NCBI GenBank assembly: GCA_965213675.1
Contig: OZ243916.1
Coordinates: 1,728,001 to 1,792,000 of the forward strand
Length of the DNA: 64,000 bases
Direction: 5' to 3'
Source of the DNA: an uncultured Candidatus Binatia bacterium
Lineage (GTDB): Bacteria; Desulfobacterota; Binatia; UBA9968; JAJDTQ01
Shown here piece after piece: positions 12,148-49,786 of this stretch (positions are counted from its first letter, which is position 1; each line of letters begins with the position of its first letter). The position numbers and the translations under genes are program-made. The notes beneath the pieces were generated by a model that was not told the origin of the DNA, did no database searches, and was given only the letters and a program-made list of their open reading frames with translations.

Positions 12148-12204
12148 TATCCCTCAGTTCGTCCCGCAGTTCCTGTTCGTCGGTACCACGCCGCGGGGAA
12201 GGCG

Positions 12205-12711: not shown

Positions 12712-12881
12712 GGTCGGTGAAGATTGTCTGAAACCGCTGGTCTCGAACTGTTCGTCCGAACTTGTTGTCCGATGGCTTTCCGCGCCCCAACATCTGAAAT
12801 GGCGCCCCTTGAGGACGCCATTTCCACGGATACGGGCCTCATTTACCTAGCACACGGGCAGGCCCTTTACAACCATCCACC

Positions 12882-14930
<2,049 letters not shown>

Positions 14931-29669: not shown

Positions 29670-29888
29670 GGTGGAGAGGCAGGTGGAACATCCTCCAGCG
29701 CAACACGGCCTCCGACTTCCGGTGCCGTATCGCGGACGTTTCTGTAACGGATTGCGCAGGAACTCTTGTTTTCGGCCAAGCGCCATGCCCTTCACGGGCG
29801 ACTTCCGTGCGAATCGGCAGCGTGGGGTAGTCCTGGAGACCAGGGACGTGACTGGTACAGCGTTGAACAGATGTGGTACACACCATAC

Positions 29889-30683
29889 ATGGACTCCGAC
29901 GCCGTGTCACCCGTCTCGCACATCCGCCGGCCCAATCTGCGGCAGCCGTTCCTGATCCTGTCGTTCTCCGGCTGGAGCGACGCCGGGTCGTCGGCCACTT
30001 CCGCCGTGCGATACCTTGTCGAGCAACTGCTGGCCACGGAGTTGGCCAAGATCGATCCCGAAGATTACTACGACTTCTCGGTTCACCGTCCCCAGGTGCG
30101 GCTGGTGGAGGGGCAACGGGAGATCGAGTGGCCTTCGTTCGATTTCCACTACTACAGGACCGGCGGCGAACTGGAGCGGGACTTCATCTTCGCCACCGGC
30201 GCCGAGCCGCACCTGCACTGGAAGGCCTTCGCCCGCACCATCATGGAACTCGCCCACGGCTGGAACGTGGCGCGCGTCATTACCATCGGGGCGCTTCTCG
30301 ACGAGGTCCTGTACACCAAGCCGGTGCCTCTCAACGGATTCTCATCGGACCCGGTGCTGATGAAGGAACTGGACTTCTCGCCGTCACGCTACCAGGGGCC
30401 CACCGGCATCGTGGGGATCCTCGGCGACACGTTCCGCAAGGCAGGCATGCCGCACGTGAGCCTGTGGGCGGCGTTGCCCCACTACCTGGCGCCGTCTCCC
30501 AACCCGCGCGGGACCCTGGCGCTGGTGCTGCGGCTGACCCAGTGGCTCGGCATCCGTATCGATACCGGTCCGCTGGAACGCGCCGCCGGCGAATTTCAGA
30601 ACAAGGTGAACGACGCGATCAACAATGACCCGAACCTGTCGGCTCTCATCCGGGAGCTTCAGAAACACGAGTTCGAGCAATAA
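29889..30683 (+). CDS. PAC2 family protein
   Basis: FSGWSDAG..A..AV.YL, DPEDYYDF...RPQV, GAEPHLHW, YQGPTGIVG, LWAALPHY...PNPRG. Confidence 0.88.
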   Translation: MDSDAVSPVSHIRRPNLRQPFLILSFSGWSDAGSSATSAVRYLVEQLLATELAKIDPEDYYDFSVHRPQVRLVEGQREIEWPSFDFHYYRTGGELERDFIFATGAEPHLHWKAFARTIMELAHGWNVARVITIGALLDEVLYTKPVPLNGFSSDPVLMKELDFSPSRYQGPTGIVGILGDTFRKAGMPHVSLWAALPHYLAPSPNPRGTLALVLRLTQWLGIRIDTGPLERAAGEFQNKVNDAINNDPNLSALIRELQKHEFEQ

Positions 30684-30697
30684 CGGAGGAAAACCCC

Positions 30698-31138
30698 ATG
30701 CGCAGACACCCGTGGTTGTACGTCCTGGCGGCCGGAGCCCTTCTCATGACCGCTGCGAACGCGTTTTCGGCCGGCCCTTTTGACAAGACCATCGACGCGC
30801 GCAAGCAACTGATGCGGGACATCAGCGAGTTCAGCAAGCAGATGCGCGGGGCCACGGACGCGGCCGCAGTGGCCGACTACGCCGAAATACTCGCCGGAGC
30901 CATGGCCAAAATCAACGAGGAGACTTTCCCCAAGGGCAGTGCGGCCGGCTCGCGCGCGAAGCCCGAAATCTGGGAGAAATGGGACGAGTTCACGGCCGCG
31001 GCCAGCAACGCCGTCACCTTGGCGCAGGATATCGCCACCAAGGCGCGCGCCGGGGAGAACACCGCCGAACTGGTCAAGGGCTACGGCCGAAGCGCCTGCG
31101 GAAGCTGCCATCGCCCCTTCCGCGCACCCAAGAGCTGA
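30698..31138 (+). CDS. Cytochrome c' / class II cytochrome c
   Basis: Sec signal peptide; R..LM near the N-terminus; SRAKPEIWEKWDEF; C-terminal CGSCHRPFR. Confidence 0.9.
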   Translation: MRRHPWLYVLAAGALLMTAANAFSAGPFDKTIDARKQLMRDISEFSKQMRGATDAAAVADYAEILAGAMAKINEETFPKGSAAGSRAKPEIWEKWDEFTAAASNAVTLAQDIATKARAGENTAELVKGYGRSACGSCHRPFRAPKS

Positions 31139-31151
31139 CGCCCGAGCCCCC

Positions 31152-31427
31152 ATGATCGCCGAACACGTGGGCGACGCCGCCCTGCCCGACATCGAGGCCT
31201 GGGCCAACGACATCATCCGCTCCGAGGACGACTCCGTGCGCGCCACGGAGTCGTACCACGATGCCGATTCCAACACCTACGTCCTCCGACTGACCCGCGG
31301 CGCCCGGGTGCTGCTGTTCCGCCTTTCCGAAGCCCAGGTCCACACCTCCGGACGCGAGCCCGAATGCGAGAAGATCCTGCGCAACCGGGTCAAGGAAGTG
31401 CGCCGCCTGCTGGGACGGACCGGCTGA
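31152..31427 (+). CDS. Hypothetical protein (91 aa)
   Basis: ATG 14 nt after the cytochrome c' stop; host-like codon usage. Confidence 0.6.
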   Translation: MIAEHVGDAALPDIEAWANDIIRSEDDSVRATESYHDADSNTYVLRLTRGARVLLFRLSEAQVHTSGREPECEKILRNRVKEVRRLLGRTG

Positions 31428-31489
31428 CAGCAGGCATATCCGACCCCAGCGGCGTATCACGGTGTATCGCAGCGTCCATCCGCGACGAG

Positions 31490-31978
31490 TCAGTGATCTT
31501 CGCCGGCCAGATCGAGAACGCGCCTGAATGTGGCTGGCGACAGCCGGAACCGCAATCTTTGCATCGCTTCCAATACGGGACCCACGGCGTCTACAAGCCC
31601 ACGTTCCTTTGCCAACAGCAGTATCCCCAAAGTACCCGTAACCTCCAGCCCCACGGCAACGGCGTGTCGCCGCGCGGCTCGGTCGTCCAACACCCGCAAG
31701 TGATCCGGGCTCTCCAGTCCCAAGGCGAGAACTTCCTTCTCTCCGTTACCCAAGCTGGTAACCAACGGCAGCAGAGTGCGGTCACGCACGGACCGCACCG
31801 CGACCCATGGCAGGTTGTCCGGACTCGGAAGGTTGACGCCGCGCCTCGCGCCCTCGGCAAGTTCCTGGACGACGGCCGAAGGGACCTGCACAGACACGAA
31901 CAGTTCCGGCAGGAGGCGGAGAAGTCCCGTCTGATGCAGGTACTGCAAAGGGGATGTGTTACAGATGACGTCGCGCAC
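31490..31978 (-). CDS. DUF3368 family PIN-domain protein (putative toxin)
   Basis: VICNTSPL, VPSAVVQEL, LGNGEKEVLAL, LDDRAARR, GTLGILLLAKERGL. Confidence 0.88.
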   Translation of the reverse strand: MRDVICNTSPLQYLHQTGLLRLLPELFVSVQVPSAVVQELAEGARRGVNLPSPDNLPWVAVRSVRDRTLLPLVTSLGNGEKEVLALGLESPDHLRVLDDRAARRHAVAVGLEVTGTLGILLLAKERGLVDAVGPVLEAMQRLRFRLSPATFRRVLDLAGEDH

Positions 31979-32225
31979 GGCTCACATCGCGTTGAAGCTC
32001 TTCCGACTCCAATTCAAACGTGTCCACTCCGTAGTCCGCCAGCTTCGTCAGGAACAGCGGCTTGGGCAGATCCGCCAACTCCGCCGCCCCCCCGGTCGAC
32101 AGGCGCCCCATCTCGCACAGCTTCACGGCGATCAAGAGCTTGGCTTCCTCACGGAACTCCTCTGCGGTCATACCCAGCGCCAGCAGCACATCGTCGCGAT
32201 AGTCGATAGTCAATGAACTCGCCAT
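31959..32225 (-). CDS. UPF0175 family protein (putative antitoxin)
   Basis: EAKLLIAVKL.EMGRLSTGGAAELA.L....FL..LADYGV; overlaps the DUF3368 start by 20 nt. Confidence 0.88.
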   Translation of the reverse strand: MASSLTIDYRDDVLLALGMTAEEFREEAKLLIAVKLCEMGRLSTGGAAELADLPKPLFLTKLADYGVDTFELESEELQRDVSRARRHL

Positions 32226-32267
32226 AGGGGATTCTCCAGCATTTCTCACCGCGTCCGAACACCTCCG

Positions 32268-35200
32268 CTATGGCGAGAGCGCCACCTGCGAAGGCCTGCT
32301 CTTCCCTTCCGTGAAATAAAACGCCTTGAACCGATCCAACAGTTTGATCTTGTCGATCAAGGCCCGCTCCTGTTGCGAGTTCGACACATTTCTCACCAGG
32401 AACTTCGCGTCTGAATCCGTACATCGTAGAATCAGATAGTTGGCTATGGCCGAAAACACCGAGGTATCGAAATCTCGTGCCTCCTGTGAAGCCACCACAA
32501 ATGAGATGCCGTACTTGCGGCACTCTTTTGCCATGGTGGGGATCAGCTTCAGGCGAGCAGCGCGATGCGCTTCATCAAAGACCAGCGCATGGGTTATCTG
32601 TTCCTGGATTCCTCGACGGAACATGTCCTTGTACAAGCCATAGAACACCAGACACGCAAAGGCTCGTTGCAGATTGTCGTTTTGCGTCGTGTGAATGCGG
32701 ATTACGACAGGAAGTTCACTGTCCCACAGACGACTGCCCATCTCGCCGTCATCGCCAAAGAAATCATAGTCGTCCAGTTCGCTCAAACGTGCCAGGAGGC
32801 TGCGCAACTCTCGGTCTGGTTTTTTCGTGTTCCGCAGAATATCCACGAAACGCCGAAACGGGGGCTCTGAAGAACCGGAGTCCGACCCCCATCCTGCTTC
32901 TTCAAAGCTCTCCTTGATGGCCCGCCGGATGTGATCGCCCTGAATGTCCCCAAGTTGAGGGTAAATCGCGCCGAAAATATCCCGCATGGCTCCGGCAACA
33001 TCCAGATGTGGCCTGGCGACGTCTCGGTCAATGACCCGCAATGGGTTGAACCCCAAGCCGTCAAAATCGATGAAGCGGACGGTTCCGACCGCTTCTTCCA
33101 ACCGCTGGTCAATATCTTGATGATAGGAGAACACGACTGGACGAATCTGCGCCGCGACCAATTGCCTGCACAAATTCACAAGGCAGGTGGTCTTGCCCAT
33201 GCCCGGCAACCCGGCGATCAACAAGTGCGGATTACCCTTCACACTGAGCGGCCAATGGACGTTGGTGTTTGTGAAGACATCTGTCCCCAGATTGACTGAA
33301 GCTTCACGTGCCTGGAAGCTTCGGCTGCCCTCTTCCGCCGTATTCACGTTCACAACGTCGTCGACTGGCGCCGACAGCGGAACGGCATCGGGCGTCTCGG
33401 GCTCATCCCCACCTCTGGAGCCCGCGTCGTTGGCTCGCCAGTTCGTTGACGTGGCGTGTATTTCCTCCGAGTCGGAAACACCGTCGGGCAGAAAGCTTGG
33501 ACCGAACAGAAACACACGAGTTCCCCAACGATCGGGGGATATCTCCAACGGAGCACGCTCGCCGTACTCGGGGCAGAACACCCACCCCCGGTCTCCGCTC
33601 GTCAGGGTAGAAATCGCATAATCTCCACCTTTTTCGATCATTTTGTCGATCTCGGAGACCAACTCCCTGTACCGTTCAGCGCGAAGATGATGCCTTTGCG
33701 CCTTGTCCGCGTAGAAACGCAAGACCCGAGCGAGCTTCGCACGTCTAATGGATCGAAAAGCGGAACATACGTTGTCGTGGCCATACCAGCCAACCCATCT
33801 CTCCCGAAGCGCTTGGACTTGTTGATTGATCCGCTGCAACAACTCCGTAGACCGAGCACTACGCAGATGACGACGGAATTTCACTTCAACGAACTGGAAG
33901 ACGAGCCCTTTGCGAGGGGCCGTCGTGACGAAAATGAGATCGGGGCGGGATGCTTTATCGTCGTCAGATTGATCCGCCGTTAACGGTGGGAGAAGGTCTC
34001 GCACATCATCGACCGGTACAATAAAACCATCCTTGAGCGGGAACCAACAGTCATTGTCTCGTGGAGGACTCATGCAATTGGCGTGAGCTACCGCGAGGGC
34101 GATCAGCTCCAACGTGGCCGAACGGTGACCTGTAAGGCGAATCGCGAGGCGACCACTGAGCGCCTTCAAGTGTTCAAGGAGAAACTCCGCATTGCGGCGA
34201 CTGTGGCTCAAGCCCATCTGATCCAGTGCCCGGTCAAGCAGATTGCGGACCTCGTCGAGATTGGTCGTGGACGTGATCAATTGGAGACAACCGAGATCCT
34301 CCCGCTCGGGCACACAATCGATGACGTAGGCGTCGTAAATTTCAGGATTGTCCCGGGGTGAATCGAAGTACTCCACGCCGGCGTTTCGGTCGAGGGTAAC
34401 GACCCAATCGCAGACATCATGAAGGTTACGAAGGCTTTCCGCCTTTTCGGCGGATATTTCGGTCGTCAAGACAGGAATGCCCCCGCTACCACCCAGGCGG
34501 CGGGCCACGGCGCCTTGTACGGCACGCTGAAGACTCAAGAGCGTCTCGGTATGCGTCCGGCGGGACGGATGCTTTTCCCCTACGGTGCCAGCGGGTAGGG
34601 TACTCAGCCACCGAGGCGAAGGGAGGCTGGTGTAGCGCCGCTGAAAAAAAGAAAGCAGCCCGAAGGCGTGGTATGGCTCGTGTGCCGGTACTTCCTGTGT
34701 CGCCCCAATACAGACCCTCGACTCAAAGCTGTCGAACGCAACGGCTATGTGCGCGGCGGTTTGCGGATTCTGGTCAACCTTGCGCGACCAACGTAGTCGC
34801 GGCACCGTAACCCCGCCCGGCAGATTCAGAGACTCCAACATCCAGCGATCCTCGGGAGCTAGAACCCCCGACCCGCTGCGACGTTTTTCGCGTGCCTCCG
34901 CGATAAACCGACCCGCTACTCCGCGCTGTCCCTCCGAAGGGTAAAGGTCGAGTGAAAACACTGGAACCGCGACCGCCCGCGTCTCATCATCCGGTTCGTC
35001 TCCGATTCCTTCGGCCTCTTGGTAGTGTTTGTGAACTCCCCCCAAAGACCGGGCGACGGTCAACCCATCGCCGGCTCGGAGCGCGTGGACATGGAGAAAG
35101 CGGGCGAGATACGCGGAGCCCTCAACATCACCGTCCGCGGTGTGGCAGTCCAGATATCTGACGATCTCGTCTCGCAAGACATTCGCACTCTGTCTCCCGG

Positions 35201-37286
35201 TTGTAGGGGCCGTGTCACCAGCTTCTCCGTCGCCGAGTGCCCGCTCCAGGATCGTTATCGCTGCCTTGGGTTCCATGTCTGAATCCGGCACCATTCCCAC
35301 TGCGTAAAACCCCAGCGTGTCGGCGAAAACAAACGTGCCGCCCGAAGGATTGGGAAGAAAGGCCGGAAACATGGCGCCGTCCAACCCCGAGAATTCTCCA
35401 AGAATCTCCTTAGGGCGCTGGTTTTGTCTGAAGCGAGCATTGAAAACAAGATTGTCATACGCGACATGCCATGCAATTCTCAGTGGATGCGCGGGCAGCA
35501 CGATGAGACCAAGAGTTCGCCCCGATAACGATTGAACCTCGACAGTGTGAACGAGACTCAACAGCGGGTCACCCTCCTTCAACAAGCCATCCCAAGCCCG
35601 CAGATATTCCCGTACGACTCCGAAATTTTCCGCGGCTTCATCATATATCTGCGCAACTCCACCTCCCCCATCAAAACGCTCCGCCATTTTGCGACTGGCC
35701 GAAGCTGCCTGCACACAGGCTTCGTCTTCCTGGTGAGGTAACTCGTGAAAGACAGGAGCCTCGGCTCGGCTGCCCGTCGCCCGCACCTTCACGGTCCACC
35801 TTCCGATTGCGCCTTGCGCATCATTCCACTGTTTTTCCGCCTCGGCGATCAAGGATGGCCGATAAACCCGGAAGCTCTTGATCCTTCCGTTGTCCTTCCG
35901 CATTCGCCGAAGCACGAATCCCTTGGAATCGACGGCGGTAACCGGGGACACAGCGACCGCGGTCACCGATTCTCTGTCTTCAGACTCAACGATACCCTCG
36001 CTGAATGTCCGGACTTTGACACCAGCGCCGCCCGAATCCTGAATTTCAGGATTGCCGAACCGGATTTGGATTTCCTCGGTTTCCTCTGCGACTTCCTGTA
36101 CACCGACAACCTCCACGACCGCCTTGGCGGACAAAACGACGTCGTCATCAAGAGTTGAGAAGTCGTCGTTGCTGAACCGACACTTCTCCCCGCCCTTTCG
36201 CGCAAGGTGAGCGATCTCTTTGACGACAACGTCTTCATCCAAAGCCGTACGGATGGAGACACGGAACTGGGCCGCGTGCTTGGCCAGATTGATCGGGTCC
36301 GTCTTCCATCGCACCTCCAGCATCGGGTCGGGTCCGGCAGCACTCGGATCCGAACTCAAGAACAAAACGGGCGGTTCGTCATCCTCCGTACGCTCGGTCA
36401 AGCCGGACCACTTGGCGACGGCACCATTGCGGTTCCGCCAAGAAGCCAACTCGACGCCTTGTATCGAATCCGCCGAACCCTGGGTTCGAAGTTCGCCAAC
36501 CCAGAGATGCCGCCGATTCGCCAATTCTTTCAGTCCCGTCAGCAACGGCTTGGTATCCACCTCATTGAGGAAACCCTCCAGTTCACCGACCTTGGGCTCT
36601 GCTTCTTTGTCAAGCCGCAAAGCATCGATGCGCGCAGCCGGTGCCAAATTCGCGACGGCCGCACTGAGCAGATGTCTTACAAACATGCGAGACGTCTTCA
36701 AATCCTCCGGATTGCCGTCATCCGCATCCAAGACCGGCCACAACCCGATCAAATGCAGATAGGCGCCCGGTGTCTGTGTCTGATTGCCAGATGCAACATG
36801 ACAGAGAAACTTGAACTCCGCCCAAGGTGGTACGCCGTGAGCCCCTCCATACCCTCGTGCCGTCTTGATCGCTTGTTCCGCGTAGCGACGTCTCGCCGCT
36901 GAATGACGGCTGGTAATTTCACCGGCCGCCAACCGAAGCGCCTGCCCAAACAATGTAGACTCGTCCACCTCCCGGCCAGCACTGTAGATACCGTCCATGC
37001 CAGCACCTGCACGCTCGCTATCAACCAGCAGCAGTATCGCTGCCGTCTTTGCTTCGCGTCGTTCCACAGCCTGGTCCGCAGTGATCGTCCGGATGTCTGA
37101 ACGGGCCTCATCCGCAACGCGCAGAACCTGCCAACCGCGTGGCGTAAACGAGGCATCGGCGGCCAACGCTTCGATGACGTTGGGACCCAGACACCGCACG
37201 AAGGCCACGGCACCGTTCTCTGGTTCACCAAGGACACTCCGAAACGCTTCCGAAAGCACCGCCCCGTGAACAGGAGTCCAACTCAT
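32268..37286 (-). CDS. Large defence ATPase with PD-(D/E)XK nuclease motif and C-terminal HerA/FtsK-type ATPase (MAD8/DndH-like)
   Basis: 1672 aa. RPDLIFV...FVEVKFR nuclease signature; NPHLLIAGLPGMGKT Walker A; LVFDEAHR Walker B; KECRKYGISFVVASQ. Confidence 0.8.
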   Translation of the reverse strand: MSWTPVHGAVLSEAFRSVLGEPENGAVAFVRCLGPNVIEALAADASFTPRGWQVLRVADEARSDIRTITADQAVERREAKTAAILLLVDSERAGAGMDGIYSAGREVDESTLFGQALRLAAGEITSRHSAARRRYAEQAIKTARGYGGAHGVPPWAEFKFLCHVASGNQTQTPGAYLHLIGLWPVLDADDGNPEDLKTSRMFVRHLLSAAVANLAPAARIDALRLDKEAEPKVGELEGFLNEVDTKPLLTGLKELANRRHLWVGELRTQGSADSIQGVELASWRNRNGAVAKWSGLTERTEDDEPPVLFLSSDPSAAGPDPMLEVRWKTDPINLAKHAAQFRVSIRTALDEDVVVKEIAHLARKGGEKCRFSNDDFSTLDDDVVLSAKAVVEVVGVQEVAEETEEIQIRFGNPEIQDSGGAGVKVRTFSEGIVESEDRESVTAVAVSPVTAVDSKGFVLRRMRKDNGRIKSFRVYRPSLIAEAEKQWNDAQGAIGRWTVKVRATGSRAEAPVFHELPHQEDEACVQAASASRKMAERFDGGGGVAQIYDEAAENFGVVREYLRAWDGLLKEGDPLLSLVHTVEVQSLSGRTLGLIVLPAHPLRIAWHVAYDNLVFNARFRQNQRPKEILGEFSGLDGAMFPAFLPNPSGGTFVFADTLGFYAVGMVPDSDMEPKAAITILERALGDGEAGDTAPTTGRQSANVLRDEIVRYLDCHTADGDVEGSAYLARFLHVHALRAGDGLTVARSLGGVHKHYQEAEGIGDEPDDETRAVAVPVFSLDLYPSEGQRGVAGRFIAEAREKRRSGSGVLAPEDRWMLESLNLPGGVTVPRLRWSRKVDQNPQTAAHIAVAFDSFESRVCIGATQEVPAHEPYHAFGLLSFFQRRYTSLPSPRWLSTLPAGTVGEKHPSRRTHTETLLSLQRAVQGAVARRLGGSGGIPVLTTEISAEKAESLRNLHDVCDWVVTLDRNAGVEYFDSPRDNPEIYDAYVIDCVPEREDLGCLQLITSTTNLDEVRNLLDRALDQMGLSHSRRNAEFLLEHLKALSGRLAIRLTGHRSATLELIALAVAHANCMSPPRDNDCWFPLKDGFIVPVDDVRDLLPPLTADQSDDDKASRPDLIFVTTAPRKGLVFQFVEVKFRRHLRSARSTELLQRINQQVQALRERWVGWYGHDNVCSAFRSIRRAKLARVLRFYADKAQRHHLRAERYRELVSEIDKMIEKGGDYAISTLTSGDRGWVFCPEYGERAPLEISPDRWGTRVFLFGPSFLPDGVSDSEEIHATSTNWRANDAGSRGGDEPETPDAVPLSAPVDDVVNVNTAEEGSRSFQAREASVNLGTDVFTNTNVHWPLSVKGNPHLLIAGLPGMGKTTCLVNLCRQLVAAQIRPVVFSYHQDIDQRLEEAVGTVRFIDFDGLGFNPLRVIDRDVARPHLDVAGAMRDIFGAIYPQLGDIQGDHIRRAIKESFEEAGWGSDSGSSEPPFRRFVDILRNTKKPDRELRSLLARLSELDDYDFFGDDGEMGSRLWDSELPVVIRIHTTQNDNLQRAFACLVFYGLYKDMFRRGIQEQITHALVFDEAHRAARLKLIPTMAKECRKYGISFVVASQEARDFDTSVFSAIANYLILRCTDSDAKFLVRNVSNSQQERALIDKIKLLDRFKAFYFTEGKSRPSQVALSP

Positions 37287-39094
37287 GTTTCTTCGAGCCT
37301 TCCCGGTTGGAAGCGCGGCTGAAGGCGCTTCATTGCTTCGGCGTCGTTGACGCCAACCAAAAGACCGAGGTCACGCAAACGGCGTTCCAGAACCGCTCGG
37401 TTCGCGTGAAGAAGTTCGTTGGAGACATCCATGCCCCGCGGGGCCACATCGACGTGAAAGCCGTGGCGAATTCGGATCGAATCCAAAAAATCCTTCAACG
37501 AAATGGGACGTATGCCCGCCCTGCTGCTTGGTGGAAGGAGGTGGAGGTGAACCAGGTAATCAAGAACCGCATCGGTAAAAACCAATGAACGGACTTCCCG
37601 TGGACGTCGCCCGGACCGCAGTGCGTCGGCACCACCGGTCGTCTTCCGTTTCCGAGCCAGTCCGTTGGGGCGATCAATGTTGATTGTCGAATCTAGCATG
37701 GAAAACGTGTTGCTTCGTGAACTCCTGCCCAGGAGCGGCGTCAACGCGGTGGCCAGACGCAGAATTGGATTCGGTAGGTTCGCCTCGTTGCCGAGCGTAG
37801 CCGCAGCCTCAGGATAGTCTTCCTTCAATGCCTCGGCGAGCTTCTCCCCAAGCTCGTCCAGTTGACGATGCACGAAGGACGCCTCGCCGTGCCGGTCGTA
37901 AAGCACGTCGCCCAGAAGATTGATCCATTCAGTTGCATAGGGGCGTTGAGGAGGCATCTGCTTCTTGATCCTGCGATTGTCACTGGCTGCGTAGTCCAAC
38001 AACCTCAGCATCATGAGTTTTTCCGGCACGCGCTCGACACGGCGCGTCAGGTCGTCCATGGACCGCTCGGCCAGCGAACGCAACCGCCGGTCGACACCGA
38101 TGGAGCAGTCAACAAGAACATCCGCGGGACGTTCTTCGTCACCCTCGGCCACCCGGCCTGTCTCAGCCCATTGCAACAGGATTTCGACGACACTTGTGAA
38201 AACGGCCGTCATTCCCGTCGCGATACAGGCTTCGACAAGTTCGACAAATGCCTGTCGCGGAACCACCCGCGCATAGGCCCGAACGAACCGTCGAATGTCC
38301 TCGGAAAAGTGACGCGATGCCTCCCTGGCAACGGGATGCTGGTTCGAGATACGGTCACCGTCCTTGCCTCTGGCCTTGTCCGGTGCATGGCCGAGTTGTT
38401 GAGCTAACCGTATCATCAGCAATTGGTCGAGGCCGATTCCCTGATTCGATTCGTCAAAATGATCGCCATTGCGGTTGGCCCTGATTGCGTCGCGCTCGAT
38501 ACCTTGGCTAAATGCTTTCAAGAGCAGGTTCTTCTCGTAGTGTGTCGCCACAGGGAACCACGACTTGTCGGTCTTCTGCGGTGGCTCGACATACTCGCCG
38601 TCTTGATTCGCAAGCATCGCCACAATCATCTCGGGCACGAAGCGAAGATGCGCGGCGGACTCCGGGAGATCTATCCAACTCGACATGTAATGCGCCGGCG
38701 CAACCCGCTGGATCTGCTTGTCTCTTCCGAGGTCGTTTCTAGAATTTTCCAAACAGTAACAGAGCAGAAGATCCCCAAGAATGGCCTTCTCGGTCCGGTC
38801 ATTGAAACCGCGAAATTTCGAATCAGAGGCGAGCCTGTCTGCCACTCTCTCCACCGTCGCCGCTCGTCTCCTCTCCGCAGGCGTTCCGGCCGTCGGAGCA
38901 AACGTCGCCAAAAACTGGCCGCGACCACGCCGATCTCCGAACCGAAACATATAAAGGACCGCCGGAAGGATCGCCGAGAGTTGAAAGTCGTTGACAGAAA
39001 TGGGTAGCGCCTTGTCGTACTGAGCAGACCAGATCGCGTCCGCCATCTGCTTGGGAAGTACATTCCGAACGATGTCCCGAGCGCTACCCGGCAT
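37283..39094 (-). CDS. Uncharacterised defence-associated protein (MAD7/DndG-like position), 603 aa
   Basis: AAGGAG RBS overlaps the upstream stop; ATGA overlap with the downstream gene. C-terminal FLDSIRIRHG...LERRLRDLGLL.GVNDA winged-helix-like end. Confidence 0.7.
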   Translation of the reverse strand: MPGSARDIVRNVLPKQMADAIWSAQYDKALPISVNDFQLSAILPAVLYMFRFGDRRGRGQFLATFAPTAGTPAERRRAATVERVADRLASDSKFRGFNDRTEKAILGDLLLCYCLENSRNDLGRDKQIQRVAPAHYMSSWIDLPESAAHLRFVPEMIVAMLANQDGEYVEPPQKTDKSWFPVATHYEKNLLLKAFSQGIERDAIRANRNGDHFDESNQGIGLDQLLMIRLAQQLGHAPDKARGKDGDRISNQHPVAREASRHFSEDIRRFVRAYARVVPRQAFVELVEACIATGMTAVFTSVVEILLQWAETGRVAEGDEERPADVLVDCSIGVDRRLRSLAERSMDDLTRRVERVPEKLMMLRLLDYAASDNRRIKKQMPPQRPYATEWINLLGDVLYDRHGEASFVHRQLDELGEKLAEALKEDYPEAAATLGNEANLPNPILRLATALTPLLGRSSRSNTFSMLDSTINIDRPNGLARKRKTTGGADALRSGRRPREVRSLVFTDAVLDYLVHLHLLPPSSRAGIRPISLKDFLDSIRIRHGFHVDVAPRGMDVSNELLHANRAVLERRLRDLGLLVGVNDAEAMKRLQPRFQPGRLEET

Positions 39095-39104
39095 GACCAA
39101 CTCC

Positions 39105-42100
39105 TTACGAATCCGTCGGTTCGAGCACCAACCGCTGGGAAGACGTGGTGCCCGCGTCTCCGTCAACGTCGACGAAGATTTCAAAGACCGTGTCCTTCAT
39201 CGGATTCCATGCAAACATCCGGCGATCATCCTCCTGAAGCAAGCGCTGCACGAAGATCGACAAATGCGCAAATACATCGTCCGTGGCCACGTCACCCAAC
39301 TGATAACCCTCGGCAAGTTCCAGGAGCAGATGAAAGAGTTCGGCGCCGAGTCGCAGCCGCTCTTCATTACCGTTCCCGTACACGTAGATGAGAGAAACTT
39401 GCCTGTGAAGTTGTTCGACGCCCTCACCGACGTCCGGCAGGTCCACTTCCAGGCGGAAACGATCCAGCGGTTTCTCTACCCAGAAAACTGTCTCGGTCGG
39501 CGTTCGCGGCGTGATCTGGAGTGGCACGCCAGTTTCTCGCTCCAACGCCTCCCGTGGCAGGGTCTCCAGGCGAGAGATGCCGTCGCAGAGTCTCTCCGTC
39601 AGTTGCCGCCTTTGATCTCCATTGTCGCTTGTGGCCAAATCAAGAAACTCACGCAGATGACGCCCACGAGCCACGCCCAGGGTGTGTGGATCGCCTGTGA
39701 GCCGCTGGATGTCCGTCTCCGACCATTCGAAATAGGCGCGCCGCCTTGCCGCAGCCAAGGGCAACCCGCTGTAGTGCGGTGGTCTTTCTTCATCTTCCGG
39801 ATCCAGCGTTTGCAACAATCGCCGGTCCAGTCGCGGATGCGCTTCGAGGCCAGGGTCAAAACGCGCCAGGTCTCGAAGCACTTCACCTTGCCTACCAGTG
39901 GATACCGGAGAAAATGCTCGCTCCGCATAGGACTGGGGAGGTGGTTTCTCGTCTGCGTCTTCGCCGTTGGAACCCGCGTGATAATCGTGGCAGTAATGAA
40001 GCCCGAACAGGACGTAGACCAACGCAGCCCGCAATTCACGAACGGTGATATGGGTCTCACCACGGAGATGAACCGCCTGTAAGGCGCAAAACAGACTTGC
40101 CCGGGCACGTCTGCGGAGATGTCCTTCTGCCAGTTCACCCGGCCCAAAAATCCGGGTTGCCCGGAATACCTCGCAACGATCTTGCGACGAGCATGTGTGA
40201 CATGGGGCCCAATGCGTCGCGGCAAGTTCGCCACCATAAAGACTATCCAGTAGCCGATCCAAAAAACTATCGTCGACACTCCTGCCATCTGTGGCGCGGC
40301 TGCCGACCAAAGAGCGCAGGTTTAGATTCACGAAGCGGATATGGGGACTTTCCAGGACAGAGTCGCCTCCAAGGAAGGCACGAAGGTCTTTCGTCAACGG
40401 CGTATCGCCGCCCCGCTCTTCGACACTCTCAATCCATTCCAGTAGACGACCATCATTGATCGCCAGCAGGTGGGCCACATCCTCGCTCGGTCGCCCGTGT
40501 TGAAACGGCTCCAGGAACTCGTCCAGAATCTCGTCGGCAGACCGGTCCCTCCAGGAAGCCGAGCCATCCAGGTTCAGGCGTACAGTCAGGGTATTGCTCA
40601 ATGTACCTGTCAAGATGCGACTTGCGGAGGTCTGAGTACCCAGCCCGAATTCTCGGGCGAGATATTGGAGGAGCGCAGTCTTCCCGTCGCCGGCGTTGCC
40701 GCAAAGAATAACGAGGCTGACCTGCCGATCCTGTACCGCCCGATACAGCGCCTGTTCAAGTCTGGTTTCAACGTAGGTGCCAACCGCAAATTCGGAATCG
40801 AGACCCCTGGTCTCGGAATTTCCCCAACGTGAGCCCGGATACGACTGTAACAGCGACTTGAGCCAAGGCACCTCGTTCTCTTGTCGTTGTGTCGGCAAGG
40901 CGACACTCGGAGTTCCTCGATCCGTCCTTGCCGTCGCATCGACGCCATCGCCGTCTTCTTGTGCAACACTGCTTCCGCTGCTCTCTCCCCGGTCTGCTTG
41001 CTCACTCAGGGCCGCCAAGGCGTCTGCTGTGTTTCCGAATCTCCTCGCTGGGTCCGGGTCCGTGGCGCGATCCAGAAAGGCCGCCAACATCGGAAATTCT
41101 TCACGCTCTGACCCTTGCCACTTGAGACCACGCTCCTTCGCCAGCCCTCCGTCATATTGAAACGGCTCCCTATCCAGCAGCACGTGAAAGAAACTGGCTG
41201 CCAGAGCATAGAGATCGTCGGATGGGGTGCTGACGCGTCCTTGACTGCCATATGGCGCGCAATACAGCATGGTGCCAGGCATTTCCGCCTGTGCGCCGAT
41301 CTTCGTTACGCAGTCGTAATCCGTCAACACCAGCTCATGTCCCGAAACAATCAGATTGCGGGGGCTGACGTCGCCATGGACCAAGCCATTGCCGTGCAGC
41401 GTGCCCAACGCTTCACACGCCACACGGAGCCACTGAATGGCCAATCCTTCTCCTGAAACGTCGCCCAAGTCGTCAGCGAGGATCGGCAGCACCCCCGTGT
41501 ACTCGCTCAACGGCATACCCTCTACCCATGTCAACAAGGCCACAAAGCCGTTATCTTGCCACTCGGGAGCCACTTCAAAGATCGTCGAAAGAGCGGTATG
41601 GCGAAGATGCGAGCGCGCCAACTCATGGGCTCTCGCCACACGGCGCCCGGTCACTTCATCGCGAACCACTTTGGCGACGTACGTGCCCAGTTCATCCTTT
41701 GTCTCGCGGTGGATTCCGGTCACCTTGTACGTTGTTCCCACACCTCCGGAACCCAACCGTGATACGATACGGTACTGCTGACCACGGAAAGGGATTACTT
41801 GATCTTCAGTCCAGTACCGTGATGCTGGAGGCGGCGTGTCGCATTCGCCATGGCCTGACACTTTCGATAGCGCGGCTTCCAGGTCCGATAGACTACTTCG
41901 CGCCTCGGAAGCCTCCGCCAATCCCTTGTCCAGCACGGCCGCAACGCTGATGCCGATGTCATCCGGTTCGTCGTGGAACAGGGTGCTCAGTGTCGCACAG
42001 AGCGAAAATACGTCTGATCGTTGATTGGCAACTCCCTTTCCGTGGGAGCGTACCTCGGGCGCGGTCGTAGATTCGCGGTCTTCGGCAGCCAACTCGGATG

Positions 42101-43166
42101 TAGACGTAACCGTGACGTGCCCCGGTATCCTCGTGTGCTCGAACCCCGTCAAGATCGGGGTGTTGTCATGCTTTACAAGAACCGTTCCCCCGTTGAGGTT
42201 TCGATGAATCATGGGTTGGTCGGCCGTGCCGGCTTCATGCATCTCACGCAAGGCCGTCAGGGCTTGACGTGCGAAGCTCAGGCGGCCATTCACGTTCCAG
42301 GAGTGGTCGGCAGACCTTTCTTCAAGGGTGGGTGTTGCCGGATCAGCAATAGTGAAGAATTTGACCTCACCCGTGAATCCGCGAGCGTCCTGGAAAGAAT
42401 CGACGATGCGTGGCGCCCAAGCGTACTGTTGCAACCGGCGTAGAGCCTCCCACTCCCGTTCCGCTTTCTTGGCGGCATTCGCTTCGTCGCTGTCCGTCAT
42501 ATCGTAAAGATGGAGGATCACGCGCTCTTGCCGTGCCGAATGCGTCGCCTTGTAGACTCGGTGGAATCGCTCCGTTGCAGGCGATTGCAGTACGAGGTGC
42601 GTATAACCGTCAAGATTCTTTATCTGGCCATCCATCGCCACAACGTTCCGCGGCGTCAATGTTCGTCCCAAGGCACTGATCTGCTCCGGCGACAGTATAC
42701 TAGGCAGTTCCAACCCCACTGCATCGCGCCAAGTGTTGAACGTGTGGAATGAAACGCCATGAATGGGCTCTCTTGCCTCAAGGGTCTTGACTTTCGAAGC
42801 GTCCTCCGTGACCAGAAACACACCATCCACACGGGGAAGATGCGGCACCTTTCGCCGCAGGGCCGTACCCATCTTCCGTGCCTTGCTGGTTACCCGATCC
42901 GCTTCTTGTTCGACGGCTTGAGGGTGCCGATTGACCCACGCCGCCGTCCAATGTTTGACTTCGATGACGCGGACTCCGGGAGGACCGATTACGACGATAT
43001 CAATCTCGTCAGACTGAAGCCGTTCATTAACGGAGAAGAGCAAGTTCGTAAGCAACAACCAATTGCCATCACCCTCGTGGCCAATCAAGCGAGTCTTGAG
43101 TTGCGCAATGGCTCGGCGTTCGCTTTCGTTGACGGCCGGGCCGCAGGGAATTATATCTGTCTTCAT
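39105..43166 (-). CDS. NERD nuclease - pseudokinase - Ser/Thr kinase - P-loop ATPase fusion (MAD6-like; PglW-like N-terminus, DndF-like C-terminus)
   Basis: NESE...EIDIVVIGPPGVRVIEVKHW (NERD). Kinase 1: IHRNLN and LTGFE. Kinase 2: LGSGGVG, VAK, VHGDVSPRN, LTDYD. ATPase: ILCGNAGDGKT, LLAINDGRL, CHTC...C. Confidence 0.85.
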   Translation of the reverse strand: MKTDIIPCGPAVNESERRAIAQLKTRLIGHEGDGNWLLLTNLLFSVNERLQSDEIDIVVIGPPGVRVIEVKHWTAAWVNRHPQAVEQEADRVTSKARKMGTALRRKVPHLPRVDGVFLVTEDASKVKTLEAREPIHGVSFHTFNTWRDAVGLELPSILSPEQISALGRTLTPRNVVAMDGQIKNLDGYTHLVLQSPATERFHRVYKATHSARQERVILHLYDMTDSDEANAAKKAEREWEALRRLQQYAWAPRIVDSFQDARGFTGEVKFFTIADPATPTLEERSADHSWNVNGRLSFARQALTALREMHEAGTADQPMIHRNLNGGTVLVKHDNTPILTGFEHTRIPGHVTVTSTSELAAEDRESTTAPEVRSHGKGVANQRSDVFSLCATLSTLFHDEPDDIGISVAAVLDKGLAEASEARSSLSDLEAALSKVSGHGECDTPPPASRYWTEDQVIPFRGQQYRIVSRLGSGGVGTTYKVTGIHRETKDELGTYVAKVVRDEVTGRRVARAHELARSHLRHTALSTIFEVAPEWQDNGFVALLTWVEGMPLSEYTGVLPILADDLGDVSGEGLAIQWLRVACEALGTLHGNGLVHGDVSPRNLIVSGHELVLTDYDCVTKIGAQAEMPGTMLYCAPYGSQGRVSTPSDDLYALAASFFHVLLDREPFQYDGGLAKERGLKWQGSEREEFPMLAAFLDRATDPDPARRFGNTADALAALSEQADRGESSGSSVAQEDGDGVDATARTDRGTPSVALPTQRQENEVPWLKSLLQSYPGSRWGNSETRGLDSEFAVGTYVETRLEQALYRAVQDRQVSLVILCGNAGDGKTALLQYLAREFGLGTQTSASRILTGTLSNTLTVRLNLDGSASWRDRSADEILDEFLEPFQHGRPSEDVAHLLAINDGRLLEWIESVEERGGDTPLTKDLRAFLGGDSVLESPHIRFVNLNLRSLVGSRATDGRSVDDSFLDRLLDSLYGGELAATHWAPCHTCSSQDRCEVFRATRIFGPGELAEGHLRRRARASLFCALQAVHLRGETHITVRELRAALVYVLFGLHYCHDYHAGSNGEDADEKPPPQSYAERAFSPVSTGRQGEVLRDLARFDPGLEAHPRLDRRLLQTLDPEDEERPPHYSGLPLAAARRRAYFEWSETDIQRLTGDPHTLGVARGRHLREFLDLATSDNGDQRRQLTERLCDGISRLETLPREALERETGVPLQITPRTPTETVFWVEKPLDRFRLEVDLPDVGEGVEQLHRQVSLIYVYGNGNEERLRLGAELFHLLLELAEGYQLGDVATDDVFAHLSIFVQRLLQEDDRRMFAWNPMKDTVFEIFVDVDGDAGTTSSQRLVLEPTDS

Positions 43167-43389
43167 CGTGACACCTGCCCCAATGTCCGCGAACAAGTCT
43201 CAATCGTGTTCATGGTCGGTGAACGTAACAGAAGCCGGCAACAGCTATCCACTTGTCCTCCAAACGCCCGTTCCGGTTCCTCCAGTCGAGAAATGGGGCG
43301 CCAGGTCCCATCATTCTGTGTGTTGCCGGACCTGGCTACGCGATGCCGACATCATTGACATCGGGTCATTTCCGTCAGTGGGGTCGCCA

Positions 43390-44358
43390 TCACAGCCCTG
43401 CTGCCATTTCCTTGGCGAAGTAGGTGAGGATCATGTCGGCGCCGGCGCGTTTGATGGACAGGAGGACTTCGGGCACGACGGTGCTTTCGTCGATCCAGCC
43501 GTTGTGGGCGGCGGCCTTGATCATGGCGTATTCGCCGCTGACGTTGTAGGCGGCGGTGGGGTAGGCGAAGCGTTGCTTGACGCGCGCGATGACGTCCAGG
43601 TAGGAGAGCGCGGGCTTGACCATGACGATGTCGGCGCCCTCGGCGATGTCGGCCTCCACCTCGCGCAGCGCCTCGTCGCTGTTGCCCGGGTCCATCTGGT
43701 ACGAGCGGCGGTCGCCGAACCGGGGCGTGGATTCCGCGGCCTCGCGGAACGGACCGTAGAAGCCCGAGGCGTATTTGGCGGCGTAGGCCATGATGACGAC
43801 ATTCTCGAAGCCTTCGCCGTCGAGCGCGCTCCGAATGGCGCCCACGCGGCCGTCCATCATGTCCGACGGGGCCACCACGTCGGCGCCGGCGCGGGCATGG
43901 GACAGCGCTTCCCTGACCAGTAGTTCGAGGGTGTCGTCGTTGTCCACCGCGCCGTCGTGGATGACGCCGCAATGGCCGTGGTCGGTGTACTCGCACAGAC
44001 ACACGTCGGTCATCACCAGCAGGTCCGGGGCCTTGTCCTTGATGGCGCGCACCGCCTGCTGCACCACGCCGTGTTCGGCCCAGGCTTCCGATCCCAAGGG
44101 GTCCTTGGTCTCGGGGATACCGAAAAGAATCACCCCCGGGATGCCCAGGCGCCAGACATGCTCCGCCTCCGCCGCGGCCCGGTCCACGGAGAGTTGCGAC
44201 ACGCCGGGCATGGACGTCACCGGCAGCGCCTGGTCACGGCCCGGACACACGAACAGCGGATAGATGAAGTCGCGGGGGCTGAGGGCGGTCTCGCGCACCA
44301 TGTCCCGCAGCAGGGCGGTGCGCCGGAGCCGTCGCGGCCGGGTAATGGGAAATGCCAT
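43390..44358 (-). CDS. hemB: Porphobilinogen synthase (ALA dehydratase)
   Basis: [54 protein letters not shown]. Confidence 0.97.
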
Positions 44359-44377
44359 TGGGGCAACTCCTGGAGAG

Positions 44378-47300
44378 CTACCAGCGGGCTGCGGCCTCCA
44401 GCCCGAACATGTGATCCAAACCGGATCCGGCACTGTGCCGGCGCGTGGCCGTGACGTCCCACGAAAGAGCGGAAGCGTGGGTTGCCACCCCCGGCGTCCA
44501 TCGCCAGCCAACGCTGTAATCGCGCGCCGAATCGGAGACACCGAGCCCGACATGCGGGCTGCCGGTGAAGCGGCCGCCGAATACGGGAATACCGTAGGCG
44601 GCTTCCGCAGTCCAGCGGCTGCCGTGGCCTGTACGGTCCGCAAGCGAGCCGGGCGCGAACAGCGCGTCAAGACCGCCTTTGGCTTGGCCGCCAAACTCCT
44701 GGCGCAGGCTGAACGACAGTCCACGCCGCAACGCGGGCTGAGGATCGAAGACCAGCGCAACCGCGACGCCTTGATCCTTCAGGGCATTCGCCTCATGCGT
44801 GATGAGGGTGCGTCCCTCCACGTCAAGCGAAAGGCCGAGACCGGGGTCCGCCCAGGCGAGCCCGCCACCGACTTCCATCCCCAGACCGGTCTCCGCATCG
44901 CCGCCGTCGTAGCGCGCACCCAGAGCCACCTTCGGCGTCAACCGCGCACCGTCCTCGTAGGCCATCGTCCAGCTTCCTTCCAAACCAAGACGGAGTCGGG
45001 AGACATCGGATTCCGCTGCGGCAAGCTCGCGGGTCTTGTCGGACGACGTACGCGCCCACAGTGCATCCGACGTGAGGGCGAGTGCCGCACCGCCCGCGGC
45101 GGCCGGGGGGATCAGGGCGCTGCGCAGACCCGCCGCCATCATGGTCCAGTCGATGTCGGCGGACTTGGCGGCGCTGTCGTGCTTGAGCGAAAGATCCCCC
45201 GCGCCGTAGCCAGCGGCCCCCCAGAGCTTCAGTCGCTCCGATGCCCGGAACGACGCATAGGGAATGGCGGCAGTCAGCGACGAATCCACCGTCGCCGGAT
45301 GGGGGTCCCCGGCGCGCGCGGCGCCTTGATAGCCCCCTTCGCCATCGCTGTGCGCGAGCGCAAGTCCCACCAGCCAGTGATCCCGCGCGTAGTCGGCCCC
45401 CAGCATGGCGGTTAAGACCTCGCCATCCAGGTCGACGCGCCCGTCTTCGCCGTCGAAGCGACCTTCCGACGCCCGGCCCCAAAAGGCCACGCTCCCCCCC
45501 GCCGCGTCCGGCTTACCGGTCAGCGCGAAGCGGCTCCCGAGCAGCGGATTCCGGTCCATCCCCGCGGCGTCCGCGCCAAAGCCATGGCCGAACGCGTCGA
45601 AGCGCTCCGCGGTCCCGATGTGGAAGCCTGAAGCAGCGCCGGACGGCGCCGCCACCCCGGGCCGAACCCCGGACAGGCTGCCCGTTCCGCCGTTGCCACG
45701 CGCCGCCGCTGCGCCGGCGGCCGTTCTGAACGTCTGTCCCGCAATGCTGCCGTGCGCGCCCGGCGCGCGGGCGGCCTCGAGGCGCCCCGTGATGCCGTCG
45801 AGCGCCTGCTCCGCCACCGTGCGCCCGAAACGGGCCAGCCACGCCTTCGGCATCGAGTCCGTGTTGACAATGGTGCCTATGCCGATGCGGTCCGCGATGG
45901 TCGCCCCCTCCGGGCTGCTGAGCACCAATCGAAAGGTCTCGCCCGGATCGTCGTGGTCGTCGTCGATGATGCCCACCGCCACCGATTTCAGACTCTCCCC
46001 GCCTTGAAAGGTCAGGGTGCCGTACGTGATGGAGAAATCCTCGCTCATCCTGGCACTGCCGCTCTGGGTGCTGTAGTGCACCCGGACGGCGCCCAAGTCG
46101 GGCGCCGGGGGATCGAGGGTCACGTCGAACCACATCTGCCCGTCGGACTCGCTTGCCGTGGCATCCGAAACCGAAAGCGCCGGCAGGGCCTGCGGCGCGC
46201 CGTCGTTGTCGTAGACGATCACGGATGCCGTGTACGGCGTGTGCAACAGATACCCGTCGCCGTCGCTGACTTGCACGACCACGGTCACCGGGCCGGAGGT
46301 CTCTTCGACGGCGTCATCCACCGTTGCCACGGTGAAGGTCTGCACGTCGCTTTCGATGACCGCGGCCTGTCTGCCGATCCCCCGGAACAGGACCGTTTGC
46401 GGGCCCTCATCGGCCGCGGCGACAAAATCTCCGTCCTCATTGTCACCATCCGATTCGGCGGCGTCGCTGATGAGGACCTTGATCTCGAGGTCCTCCGTCA
46501 ACGGCGGACGGGCCTCGAGCATGAAGGTTGCGGGCTCACCCTCCGTGACCGCGGCCTGGGCGCTGATGGTGATGACCGGTGTTCCCGGAACCACGTCCCA
46601 CGGATCCGGCAGAATCGTGCCCACCGCCAGGCCATTGGCGATCTCGGCTCCGTCCACCCTGACGATCCTGAGCCCAAACGTCTCGGGCGCCTTCTCGTCC
46701 TCATCATCATCGATGATCCGAACCCCGGCGTAGGCTTCCGTCTCACCGGGCGAGAAGACGACATAGCTGGAGACCCGGCCCCCCGACAGTTCGTAATCCT
46801 CTCCCGGCGTCGCCGGCCGGGCGCCAGGCGTCTCCGGCGTGGTGTACAGGGTGTACCGGACTGTCACCCGACCCGCGGACGGACGGCTGAGTGTCACCGG
46901 AAAACGCATCTGCGAATAGCTGTCACGGTCGCCTTCCACGAGGGTCGCATCCGCCACGGACACCGACAGATCCTCGTCTCCGACATCATTGTCGTTGATC
47001 AGCACCGTCGCGGAATCGGGGAAACCCACCAGGTAGCCTTGTCCCTCATCCACGCTTGCGGTGAGCGAACCATCATACTCGTCCACCTCGTCATCCTGCG
47101 TGGGAACTTCGAGCACGCCCGTACCGCTTGAGTCGATGATGGCGGTCACCGGGCTGGACAAATCGCCGTCATGGACGAACGAGTTGCGTTGCGAGAGGGT
47201 CAACAGCACTACGAGATCCGCCGCGGGAGCGGGGATCGCGCTCAGCGAAAACGTGGCCGTTTCGCCTTCGATGATGGTCGGTCCCGAATCAATGCTCACC

Positions 47301-49714: not shown

Positions 49715-49786
49715 ACGGACCCCTCGTACAAGATTCCCAATATATTCCAAATAGTTGAGCGTACAATGCTAAAGTAGCACGAACGC

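Follow-up and report, generated by a model that had tools for sequence, protein, structure and literature searches.

At positions 32268-43166 of the window, by which we mean the whole 64,000-nucleotide stretch of a Candidatus Binatia genome that was analysed (contig OZ243916.1 of assembly GCA_965213675.1, forward-strand positions 1,728,001 to 1,792,000), three long genes follow one another on the minus strand in the order F, G and H (Table 1). From the junctions, it is clear that they form a single translationally coupled unit: F and G are joined as TAA-GGAGTTGGTC-ATG, a 10-nt gap holding the ribosome-binding site GGAG, and G and H as ACATGAGT, an ATGA overlap. An earlier sequence-only reading of this DNA had described three coupled minus-strand genes of 1353, 603 and 1672 aa with such a gap and such an overlap, and the frames and junctions confirm that description. 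All three frames are open, with 3628 codons in sum and each catalytic motif intact. The F start (43166) lies 223 bp from the hemB stop (43390), close to the ~220 bp given before, and alignments with congeners place hemB proper at 43390-44373. The window contains no N, lies within a 3.97-Mb contig and is colinear with congeners on both flanks of the triad; a break in the assembly, through which the sequence-only reading could have failed, is thus ruled out.

In the F protein, Pfam recognises a NERD domain (residues 13-86) and a protein kinase domain (Pkinase, 465-673, 64 bits), with a weak PK_Tyr_Ser-Thr match in between (289-397). The second kinase has PDB matches to PknA/PknB/StkP-type kinases, and the kinase part matches the MkoA, PD-T4-6 and mad6 models of PADLOC. 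Residues 799-1057 match SspF (E 1.8e-16; at 57.7 bits the best PADLOC match of this core) and DndF (E 3e-7). The conservation of the motifs was followed in alignments of 61 F, 76 G and 64 H homologs from related loci. At least 95% of the F homologs retain the D..EVK residues of NERD, the catalytic residues of the second kinase (K499, HGD, N604, DYD) are conserved at 80-95% or more, and the GDGKT, NLDG and INDG motifs of the core are invariant. Since the first kinase retains HRN instead of HRD, that is, an Asn at the position of the catalytic Asp, in at least 80% of the homologs, it is predicted to be a conserved pseudokinase. The NERD-kinase-kinase-ATPase layout that had been read from the letters is thus borne out by the Pfam and PADLOC matches, with the refinement that the first kinase is a predicted pseudokinase. 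Most of the 80 related loci described below have a full-length F homolog ahead of G. In three of them (L041, L069 and L086), F has only 606-652 aa and matches SspF/DndF alone, with G and H kept; the NERD-kinase part is therefore an add-on to a plain F-G-H triad.

The C-terminus of H (residues 1318-1670) matches the solved DptH C-domain (PDB 7es4, E 3.2e-9) together with HerA chains, and in PADLOC it matches DndH with 74 bits, over the last ~360 model positions only, as well as mad8 and HerA. Three H homologs of 59-60% identity have been named 'DptH' by JGI. The RPD...EVK nuclease motif upstream of the ATPase is conserved in at least 90% of 35 aligned homologs and in at least 80% of all 64, and the Walker A and B motifs are invariant in the 64; the PD...EVK motif and HerA/FtsK-type ATPase noted earlier therefore stand. 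A structure model of H places two β-strands (1117-1123 and 1127-1133) by the nuclease motif. For the N-terminus, an Atlas search returned only unnamed clusters as neighbours. Three H homologs (P0382, P0384 and P0392) exceed it in length by 60-100 aa and have precomputed domains of antitoxin type, either UPF0175, as in P0382, or DUF433.

G and its homologs fall, in precomputed assignments, into the Pfam 38.1 family PF26611, which is named MAD7 by Atlas; no match to G was found in PADLOC, in the local copy of Pfam or, with a family profile, in the PDB. Among 8000 database sequences scored, 1321 are relatives of G at E ≤ 0.001, the best 120 of them having 61-72% identity and a length of ~600 aa, and a profile search of a library of 1.84 billion proteins gave 453 matches at the same threshold. 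Ten weaker full-length relatives, taken from the best 150 of these 453, all match MAD7 at 69-262 bits, which is under its cut-off, and DptG is matched by none of them. Since the MAD7 scores of such weaker relatives rise progressively, reaching 262 bits, G belongs to a sister clade of canonical MAD7 within the same family. By its sequence, then, G belongs to the MAD7 family, and its role is predicted to be DNA binding. The canonical DptG model (TIGR03236) matched in 0 of 5 and 0 of 401 genomes, in a search whose control likewise matched nowhere.

These matches can be set against the DndFGH definition of Rakesh, Aravind & Krishnan (NAR 2024, PMC10853773); this and the other papers are cited here for their available portions. 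The derived P-loop kinase core that the definition places in F is seen in the PADLOC matches and the invariant motifs, and the ~1700-aa H ending in a restriction endonuclease and then a HerA/FtsK ATPase is seen in our 1672-aa protein, with its conserved motif, its matches to the DndH models and the hit to 7es4. In its operon, its F core and its H C-terminus, the triad is accordingly DndFGH in the broad sense. Judged from the same comparisons, its core also corresponds to MAD6-7-8 of the MADS defence system, in a stand-alone configuration. The double likeness proposed by the sequence-only reading is therefore upheld by PADLOC, NCBIfam and PF26611 alike.

In a scan covering one genome per species, 99 relatives turned up; 80 loci were kept from these, their genes being called by a crude longest-open-reading-frame (ORF) rule. 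All but one of these loci come from metagenome-assembled genomes, and their record titles name at least 13 phylum-level groups; the taxa include Gamma- and Alphaproteobacteria, Acidobacteriota, Binatia, Thermodesulfobacteriota, Chloroflexota, Spirochaetia, Latescibacterota, Planctomycetota, Gemmatimonadota, Verrucomicrobia, Nitrospirae and Hydrogenedentota, among others. By tblastn, all 80 loci preserve the order and strand of F, G and H as far as the contigs reach, and the homologs are conserved at 45-68% identity across groups spanning many phyla. When the flank ORFs of the 80 loci were clustered, no family other than the triad itself occurred in more than six loci. A Pfam scan of the two closest ORFs per side with a length of at least 100 aa (122 of 134 upstream and 129 of 134 downstream, rows lying inside the triad being dropped; small genes are missed) gave N6_Mtase in 2 of the 122 upstream and 2 of the 129 downstream neighbour proteins, and no Dnd or Ssp family in the top 25 listed. 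Anywhere in the fetched flanks, an N6-methylase was detected by tblastn in 7 of the 80 loci, the queries being seven N6-methylase domains of the host genome and two Rhizobium methylases, and DndC-like, IscS-like and HEC-06-like proteins of the host genome found nothing in any of the 80 flanks.

Since the bare triad is the rule in these loci, its stand-alone state is genuine, and a truncated relic of a MADS or Dnd system is ruled out. The absence of an adjacent modification module, as had been noticed from the sequence, extends to the entire island described below, and the suspicion that close homologs might always sit beside mad2/mad5 or dnd genes has not come true, with an N6-methylase at 7 of the 80 loci and a DndC-like protein at none. 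The survey thus shows that the cassette moves between phyla as a unit, with no fixed modification partner. Three Bryobacterales loci (L036, L042 and L053) seem to have triads in which the HerA/FtsK motor is missing or replaced: the match to H breaks off around residue 1263, with no HerA-type gene recognised beside it. The H gene is ~1270 aa long in L036 and L042, and in L053 the called ORF has 696 aa and is apparently broken; downstream genes of 364-384 aa in L036 and L053 match no PADLOC model.

In eight of nine congener hemB loci (L112-L115 and L117-L120), the sequence matching window 29920-31430 directly abuts the hemB stop, and from this the limits and length of an inserted island were derived. 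Its GC content of 0.581 compares with 0.664 and 0.680 in the flanks. Of 24 congeneric genomes, three carry a G homolog (61-66% identity), and of 16 genomes from other families of the order, none does. The low GC, the absence from congeners and the patchy G homologs together point to a patchy, horizontally acquired accessory island. Triads of 38-40% identity also occur on two conjugative Rhizobium plasmids, where the annotation goes no further than 'NERD domain-containing protein', 'hypothetical protein' and 'ATP-binding protein'; two DNA methylase genes come after the triad on one plasmid, and on the other the triad lies amid SIR2, insertion-sequence and type ISP genes.

Besides the triad, the island contains a UPF0175 gene directly after H and a DUF3368 gene, an antitoxin-like and toxin-like pair that is followed downstream by cytochrome c' and then PAC2. 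A UPF0175 homolog stands directly after H in 4 of the 80 loci by tblastn (L023, L030, L031 and L100), its start within ~60 nt of the H stop, and in L100 a DUF3368 homolog also follows the triad. UPF0175 or DUF433 domains fused to, or following, H homologs suggest that antitoxin-like modules are repeatedly associated with the triad. In the remaining congener locus (L116 of genome G074), a UPF0175 remnant at positions 2501-2854, between hemB and cytochrome c', shares 80% identity with window 31872-32225, and the triad is absent; it may have been lost from this site, or the toxin-antitoxin pair may have arrived before it.

Table 1. Features of the triad, its proteins and its surroundings (window coordinates).
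Feature	Position	Strand	Extent or residues	Basis or remark
F subunit gene	39105..43166	(-)	1353 aa	NERD + pseudokinase + kinase + DndF/SspF-type P-loop core + C-terminal region
G subunit gene	37283..39094	(-)	603 aa	MAD7-family protein, by sequence
H subunit gene	32268..37286	(-)	1672 aa	DndH/DptH-like multidomain nuclease-translocase
NERD PD-(D/E)xK nuclease domain of F	42909..43130	(-)	residues 13-86; D53, D56, E69, K71	Pfam PF08378, E 1.1e-8
First kinase-like domain of F, predicted pseudokinase	41967..42569	(-)	~residues 200-400; H321-R322-N323 replaces HRD	
Second kinase domain of F, predicted active Ser/Thr	40977..41774	(-)	~465-730; K499, H597-G598-D599, N604, D616-Y617-D618	
DndF/SspF-type P-loop core + C-terminal region of F	39108..40784	(-)	~795-1353; Walker A G823-T830, N865-L-D867, I903-N904-D905-G906	
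PD-(D/E)xK restriction-endonuclease motif of H	33870..33950	(-)	R1114-P-D1116 ... E1134-V-K1136	read from sequence
HerA/FtsK-type ATPase domain of H	32271..33335	(-)	~1318-1672; Walker A K1365, Walker B D1571-E1572	
UPF0175 antitoxin-like gene	31959..32249	(-)		Pfam PF03683, E 3e-20; directly downstream of H
DUF3368 (PIN-like) toxin-like gene	31490..31978	(-)		Pfam PF11848, E 1.1e-16; overlaps antitoxin gene
hemB stop to F start, presumed promoter region	43167..43389	(-)	223 bp	
Inserted island limits	31430..43385	(.)	~11.96 kb	GC 0.581; congener loci

Taken together, these results make it likely that the object is an intact, horizontally acquired, stand-alone anti-phage/anti-plasmid defence cassette of the DndFGH/MAD6-8 type. 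A number of findings weigh against this interpretation. None of the triad proteins matches NCBIfam DptG or DptH at E ≤ 0.01, and G in particular matches none of the DndG, SspG and DptG models (PADLOC; NCBIfam at the same threshold). G residues 70-595 do align nearly end to end with NCBIfam MAD7, at 134.9 bits with a cut-off of 410, and F residues 4-400 with MAD6, at 168.1 bits with a cut-off of 460, so that both stay below the thresholds of their families; F reaches 17.3 bits with NCBIfam DptF (TIGR03238), where the cut-off is 50. The N-terminal 1300 residues of H match no hidden Markov model, and a model of its residues 1-1200 (mean confidence, pLDDT, 71) gave no Foldseek match in the PDB at E ≤ 0.001, only weak ones of β-sandwich type. 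An AlphaFold2 model of G from a 25-sequence alignment had a mean pLDDT of 43, too low for its fold to be used. A σ70 scan of the region between hemB and F returned no minus-strand promoter site, with overall counts equal to chance, and a literature search, with most subscription journals outside its reach, found no bench study of the kinase-bearing stand-alone form. To the same side belong the candidate marking genes elsewhere in triad-bearing genomes and the toxicity of the canonical systems, both of which are taken up below. A terminator scan gave counts no higher than chance.

If the cassette is a defence system, its mode of action may be pictured by analogy with DndFGH and SspFGH, in which case F, G and H would form one complex. 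Within it, G and the large N-terminal part of H would bind DNA, the HerA/FtsK motor of H would translocate on it using ATP, and the PD-(D/E)xK site of H would nick or cut the DNA of the invader and so block its replication. The F core would serve as a sensor of nucleotides or of the invader, the pseudokinase-kinase pair as a phosphorylation switch, and the NERD nuclease as a second or back-up effector, as has been proposed in silico (Rakesh et al. 2024). The UPF0175/DUF3368 pair probably stabilises the island or adds an abortive back-up. Because no marking enzyme travels with the cassette, the restraint that spares host DNA would most likely be built into the complex itself. On that particular point a difficulty arises: since canonical DndFGH and SspFGH are toxic without the phosphorothioate (PT) mark, as the accessible text on SspFGH of Vibrio anguillarum reports for PT-free cells carrying SspFGH alone (PMC8092258; Wang et al., mBio 2021), a mark-free mode would need a still hypothetical restraint. 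We put the chance that the cassette acts in a mark-free, self-gated manner at about even. The fuller proposal, that a sensor-kinase switch in F holds a DndH-type translocase-nuclease off host DNA and that this clade is the missing link between MAD6-7-8, DndFGH and SspFGH, is advanced only tentatively, as the odds seem to us to lie against it. If it were true, one ancestral effector module would have been coupled repeatedly to N6-methyladenine marking, to double-strand or single-strand PT marking, or to none.

The most direct alternative to a built-in restraint is a self-mark made elsewhere. The triad would then be the restriction half of a split restriction-modification system, in which a chromosomal mark encoded in trans spares the host and unmarked DNA is attacked, much as SspFGH on its own harms host DNA that lacks PT, a damage that the matching PT mark relieves (PMC8092258, accessible part). 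Candidates for such a mark are a DndA/DndC-like module and a type I-like N6-methylase. The host genome holds both kinds of genes: it has seven strong N6_Mtase matches, the nearest 51 kb from the triad, and, 1.24 Mb from the triad, a DndC match over cut-off beside an IscS/DndA-like gene. The latter belongs to a candidate phosphorothioation-type module (genome G000, C1:2997800-3006150; locus L021, 3800-12153) made up of an IscS/DndA-like protein, a 390-aa DndC-like protein, a HEC-06/Orf5 protein with further matches to SspE and type IV enzymes, an SNF2 helicase, a ParB-like protein and an exonuclease of the MBL fold. However, since this module carries its own likely nuclease, the SspE/GmrSD-like HEC-06/Orf5 protein, along with the SNF2 helicase, it looks self-sufficient. 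A near-duplicate with identical ORF lengths on contig C18 (L022) could stem from the 8% contamination or from a strain variant. DUF4007, the mark of SspB, had no match in the host genome, which we have counted against a trans-encoded mark, although the control of that search likewise matched nowhere.

Across genomes, the association is similarly two-sided. Within the genus, 8 of 26 genomes have the short DndC type over cut-off; it occurs in three of four triad-bearing genomes and in 5 of 21 triad-less ones, but a table of 3, 1, 5 and 16 falls short of significance (one-sided Fisher p 0.08), and the genomes, being kin, are not independent. Among 50 of the 80 triad-bearing genomes, mainly those with long contigs, DndC is over cut-off in 13 and SspB is found in 16, as against 15 of 401 genomes for SspB in a phylum sample that also differs in taxonomy and assembly quality. 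Somewhere in the genome, 26 of the 50 have a DndC- or SspB-type gene, whereas 24 have neither DndC over cut-off nor SspB. PglZ, a marker of the unrelated BREX defence, is about as enriched (26 of 50 versus 42 of 401), and triad-bearing genomes are therefore simply defence-rich; after this control, a specific coupling to SspBCD is unsupported. Where the positions of PT modules were checked by DndC and SspB coordinates, none adjoins a triad. The methylases give single cases: the Rhizobium plasmid triad that precedes two DNA methylase genes, and a Caldilineaceae locus (L074) with an N6-methylase just after the triad (11986-12927), which shares 79.5% protein identity with a methylase of the host genome (G000 C1:2051706-2052656) ~280 kb from its triad and looks like cross-phylum gene transfer. 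Against these stands the lack of any modification gene conserved in cis in the 80 loci. A trans-encoded mark in the host genome is thus possible, yet it is not needed to account for the data, and no such mark is apparent in the clade as a whole. Of the three modes suggested by the sequence-only reading, namely a self-mark made elsewhere, recognition of modified phage DNA and a trigger by the kinase, the first receives little support from the co-occurrence counts. We regard the split system as rather unlikely.

Two other explanations concern the role of the cassette as a whole. It could work mainly by abortive infection, with the F kinase and NERD, together with the DUF3368 toxin, damaging host targets and H only detecting or capturing invader DNA. 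The NERD and kinase motifs are indeed conserved as strongly as the nuclease motif of H, the PD-T4-6 and MkoA kinase models match F, and Rakesh et al. propose the N-terminal domains as suicide co-effectors (PMC10853773, accessible part). On the other hand, the NERD-kinase part is missing in the three clade members that keep G and H and is hence accessory, whereas the nuclease and ATPase motifs of H are conserved throughout. The toxin-antitoxin pair did enter with the island, and UPF0175 or DUF433 domains are fused to or placed after H in several homologs, but the UPF0175 gene follows H in just four of the 80 loci. We consider this explanation improbable. More improbable by far is a cassette with no current defence function here, an inert or decaying passenger in the form of a selfish mobile island that its toxin-antitoxin pair keeps in place. 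The empty promoter scan upstream of F and the L116 congener, where the UPF0175 remnant alone is kept, with the triad absent, would fit such a history, but three long frames, open over all their 3628 codons, with every catalytic motif intact would not, and the 45-68% identity of homologs across many phyla argues for purifying selection. An intact defence cassette remains the interpretation that we prefer.

The question addressed by this locus is how a DndFGH-type nuclease-translocase spares its host with no marking enzyme at its side. The clade is a clean test case for it, as it combines 45-68% identity, at least 13 phylum-level groups, a bare triad and natural variants without the NERD-kinase module.

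Beyond the island, the surroundings show some further features. A second strain-specific insertion (window 44373-49821) lies on the opposite side of hemB, so that hemB is flanked by insertions; the congener loci lack its 1790-aa ORF (44378-49750, minus strand), which has Calx-beta domains, and in them hemB nearly adjoins the sequence matching window 49821 onward. Within it, ~270 bp (window ~44488-44757) match at least 10 other sites of the genome at 67-72% identity and many in congeners (~15 shorter ones in G070), and this looks like a dispersed repeat element. In the conserved flank outside the island, window 27423-29795 (minus strand) encodes a 790-aa ORF with the exonuclease domain of family-B DNA polymerases (Pfam E 1.5e-9).

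Among the known systems, SspFGH of Vibrio anguillarum (PMC8092258, accessible part) is likewise a three-gene module with a Walker A motif in F and an FtsK-like C-terminus in H, and all three genes are needed for defence there. It differs from our triad in sitting with sspBCD, which are not adjacent on our island, in depending on single-strand PT marks and in having an SspF with no NERD-kinase extension. PglW of type 2 BREX/Pgl shares the N-terminal order of NERD, pseudokinase and active kinase, and a 2026 BREX paper from the Rakesh et al. group, in its available portion, notes this PglW-like arrangement also 'in a subset of DndF proteins' (PMC12839542). The C-terminal half of PglW, however, is a triple winged helix-turn-helix (wHTH) region with an inactive STAND domain, in place of the DndF core of F. 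No PglX, PglY or PglZ lies beside the triad, and the host genome has no PglZ match.

The stand-alone DndFGH systems are much closer. According to the accessible part of PMC10853773, DndFGH occurs in 1798 taxa, as against only 316 for the full set of eight dnd genes, and the DndF core may be fused to NERD and tandem inactive/active S/T/Y kinases. Our triad agrees with these systems in being an F-G-H operon with no modification module and with a patchy, mobile distribution, in an F composed of NERD, inactive and active kinases and a P-loop core with canonical Walker A and N/D motifs, and in an H of ~1700 aa ending in a restriction endonuclease and then a HerA/FtsK ATPase. The DndG described there has 450-500 aa and three wHTH domains, whereas our G has 603 aa and matches MAD7 rather than the DptG/DndG models; F here begins directly with NERD, no wHTH being detected. 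For the N-terminus of DndH the same source gives an inactive SNF2 part, a helix-turn-helix, target-recognition domains, an inactive Dam domain and β-sandwiches. The suggestion of the sequence-only reading that the triad might be an undescribed orphan variant must thus be given up, as the stand-alone form and the same fusion are in print in these two papers, and MAD1-5 are accessory in the MADS model. The triad is a new member of a kind already described in silico, and since both its architecture and the stand-alone idea have been published, what we add is a well-delimited example with survey counts, not a new kind of system.

MADS (Maestri et al., bioRxiv 10.1101/2023.03.30.534895; PMC13662399) offers the other close comparison. 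In the accessible text of the preprint, defence needs mad2-4 and mad6-8, the detection model has MAD6-8 as mandatory and MAD1-5 as accessory, and operon completeness varies, suggesting subtypes; a 2026 NAR paper, as far as accessible, describes MAD7/MAD8 as an ATPase-associated module required for defence. The triad resembles MADS in the N-terminal 400-560 residues of F, which align with MAD6 (NERD plus kinase), in the MAD7 family membership of G, in the H C-terminal ATPase that matches the mad8 model, and in the gene order. In contrast to MADS, the island lacks MAD1-5 (no N6-methylase, HsdS-like subunit or MAD3/MAD4 OLD-type nuclease), F has an extra DndF/SspF core of ~560 aa that is missing from the 612-position MAD6 model, H has 1672 aa versus the 314 positions of the mad8 model, and the triad scores far under the NCBI cut-offs for MAD6 and MAD7. 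In their available portions, neither PMC10853773 nor PMC12839542 mentions MADS, nor does the MADS preprint mention Dnd, so the link between MAD6-8 and DndFGH is apparently unstated in that literature. With the triad described here, the two naming schemes, MAD6-8 of MADS and DndFGH, are tied to one module.

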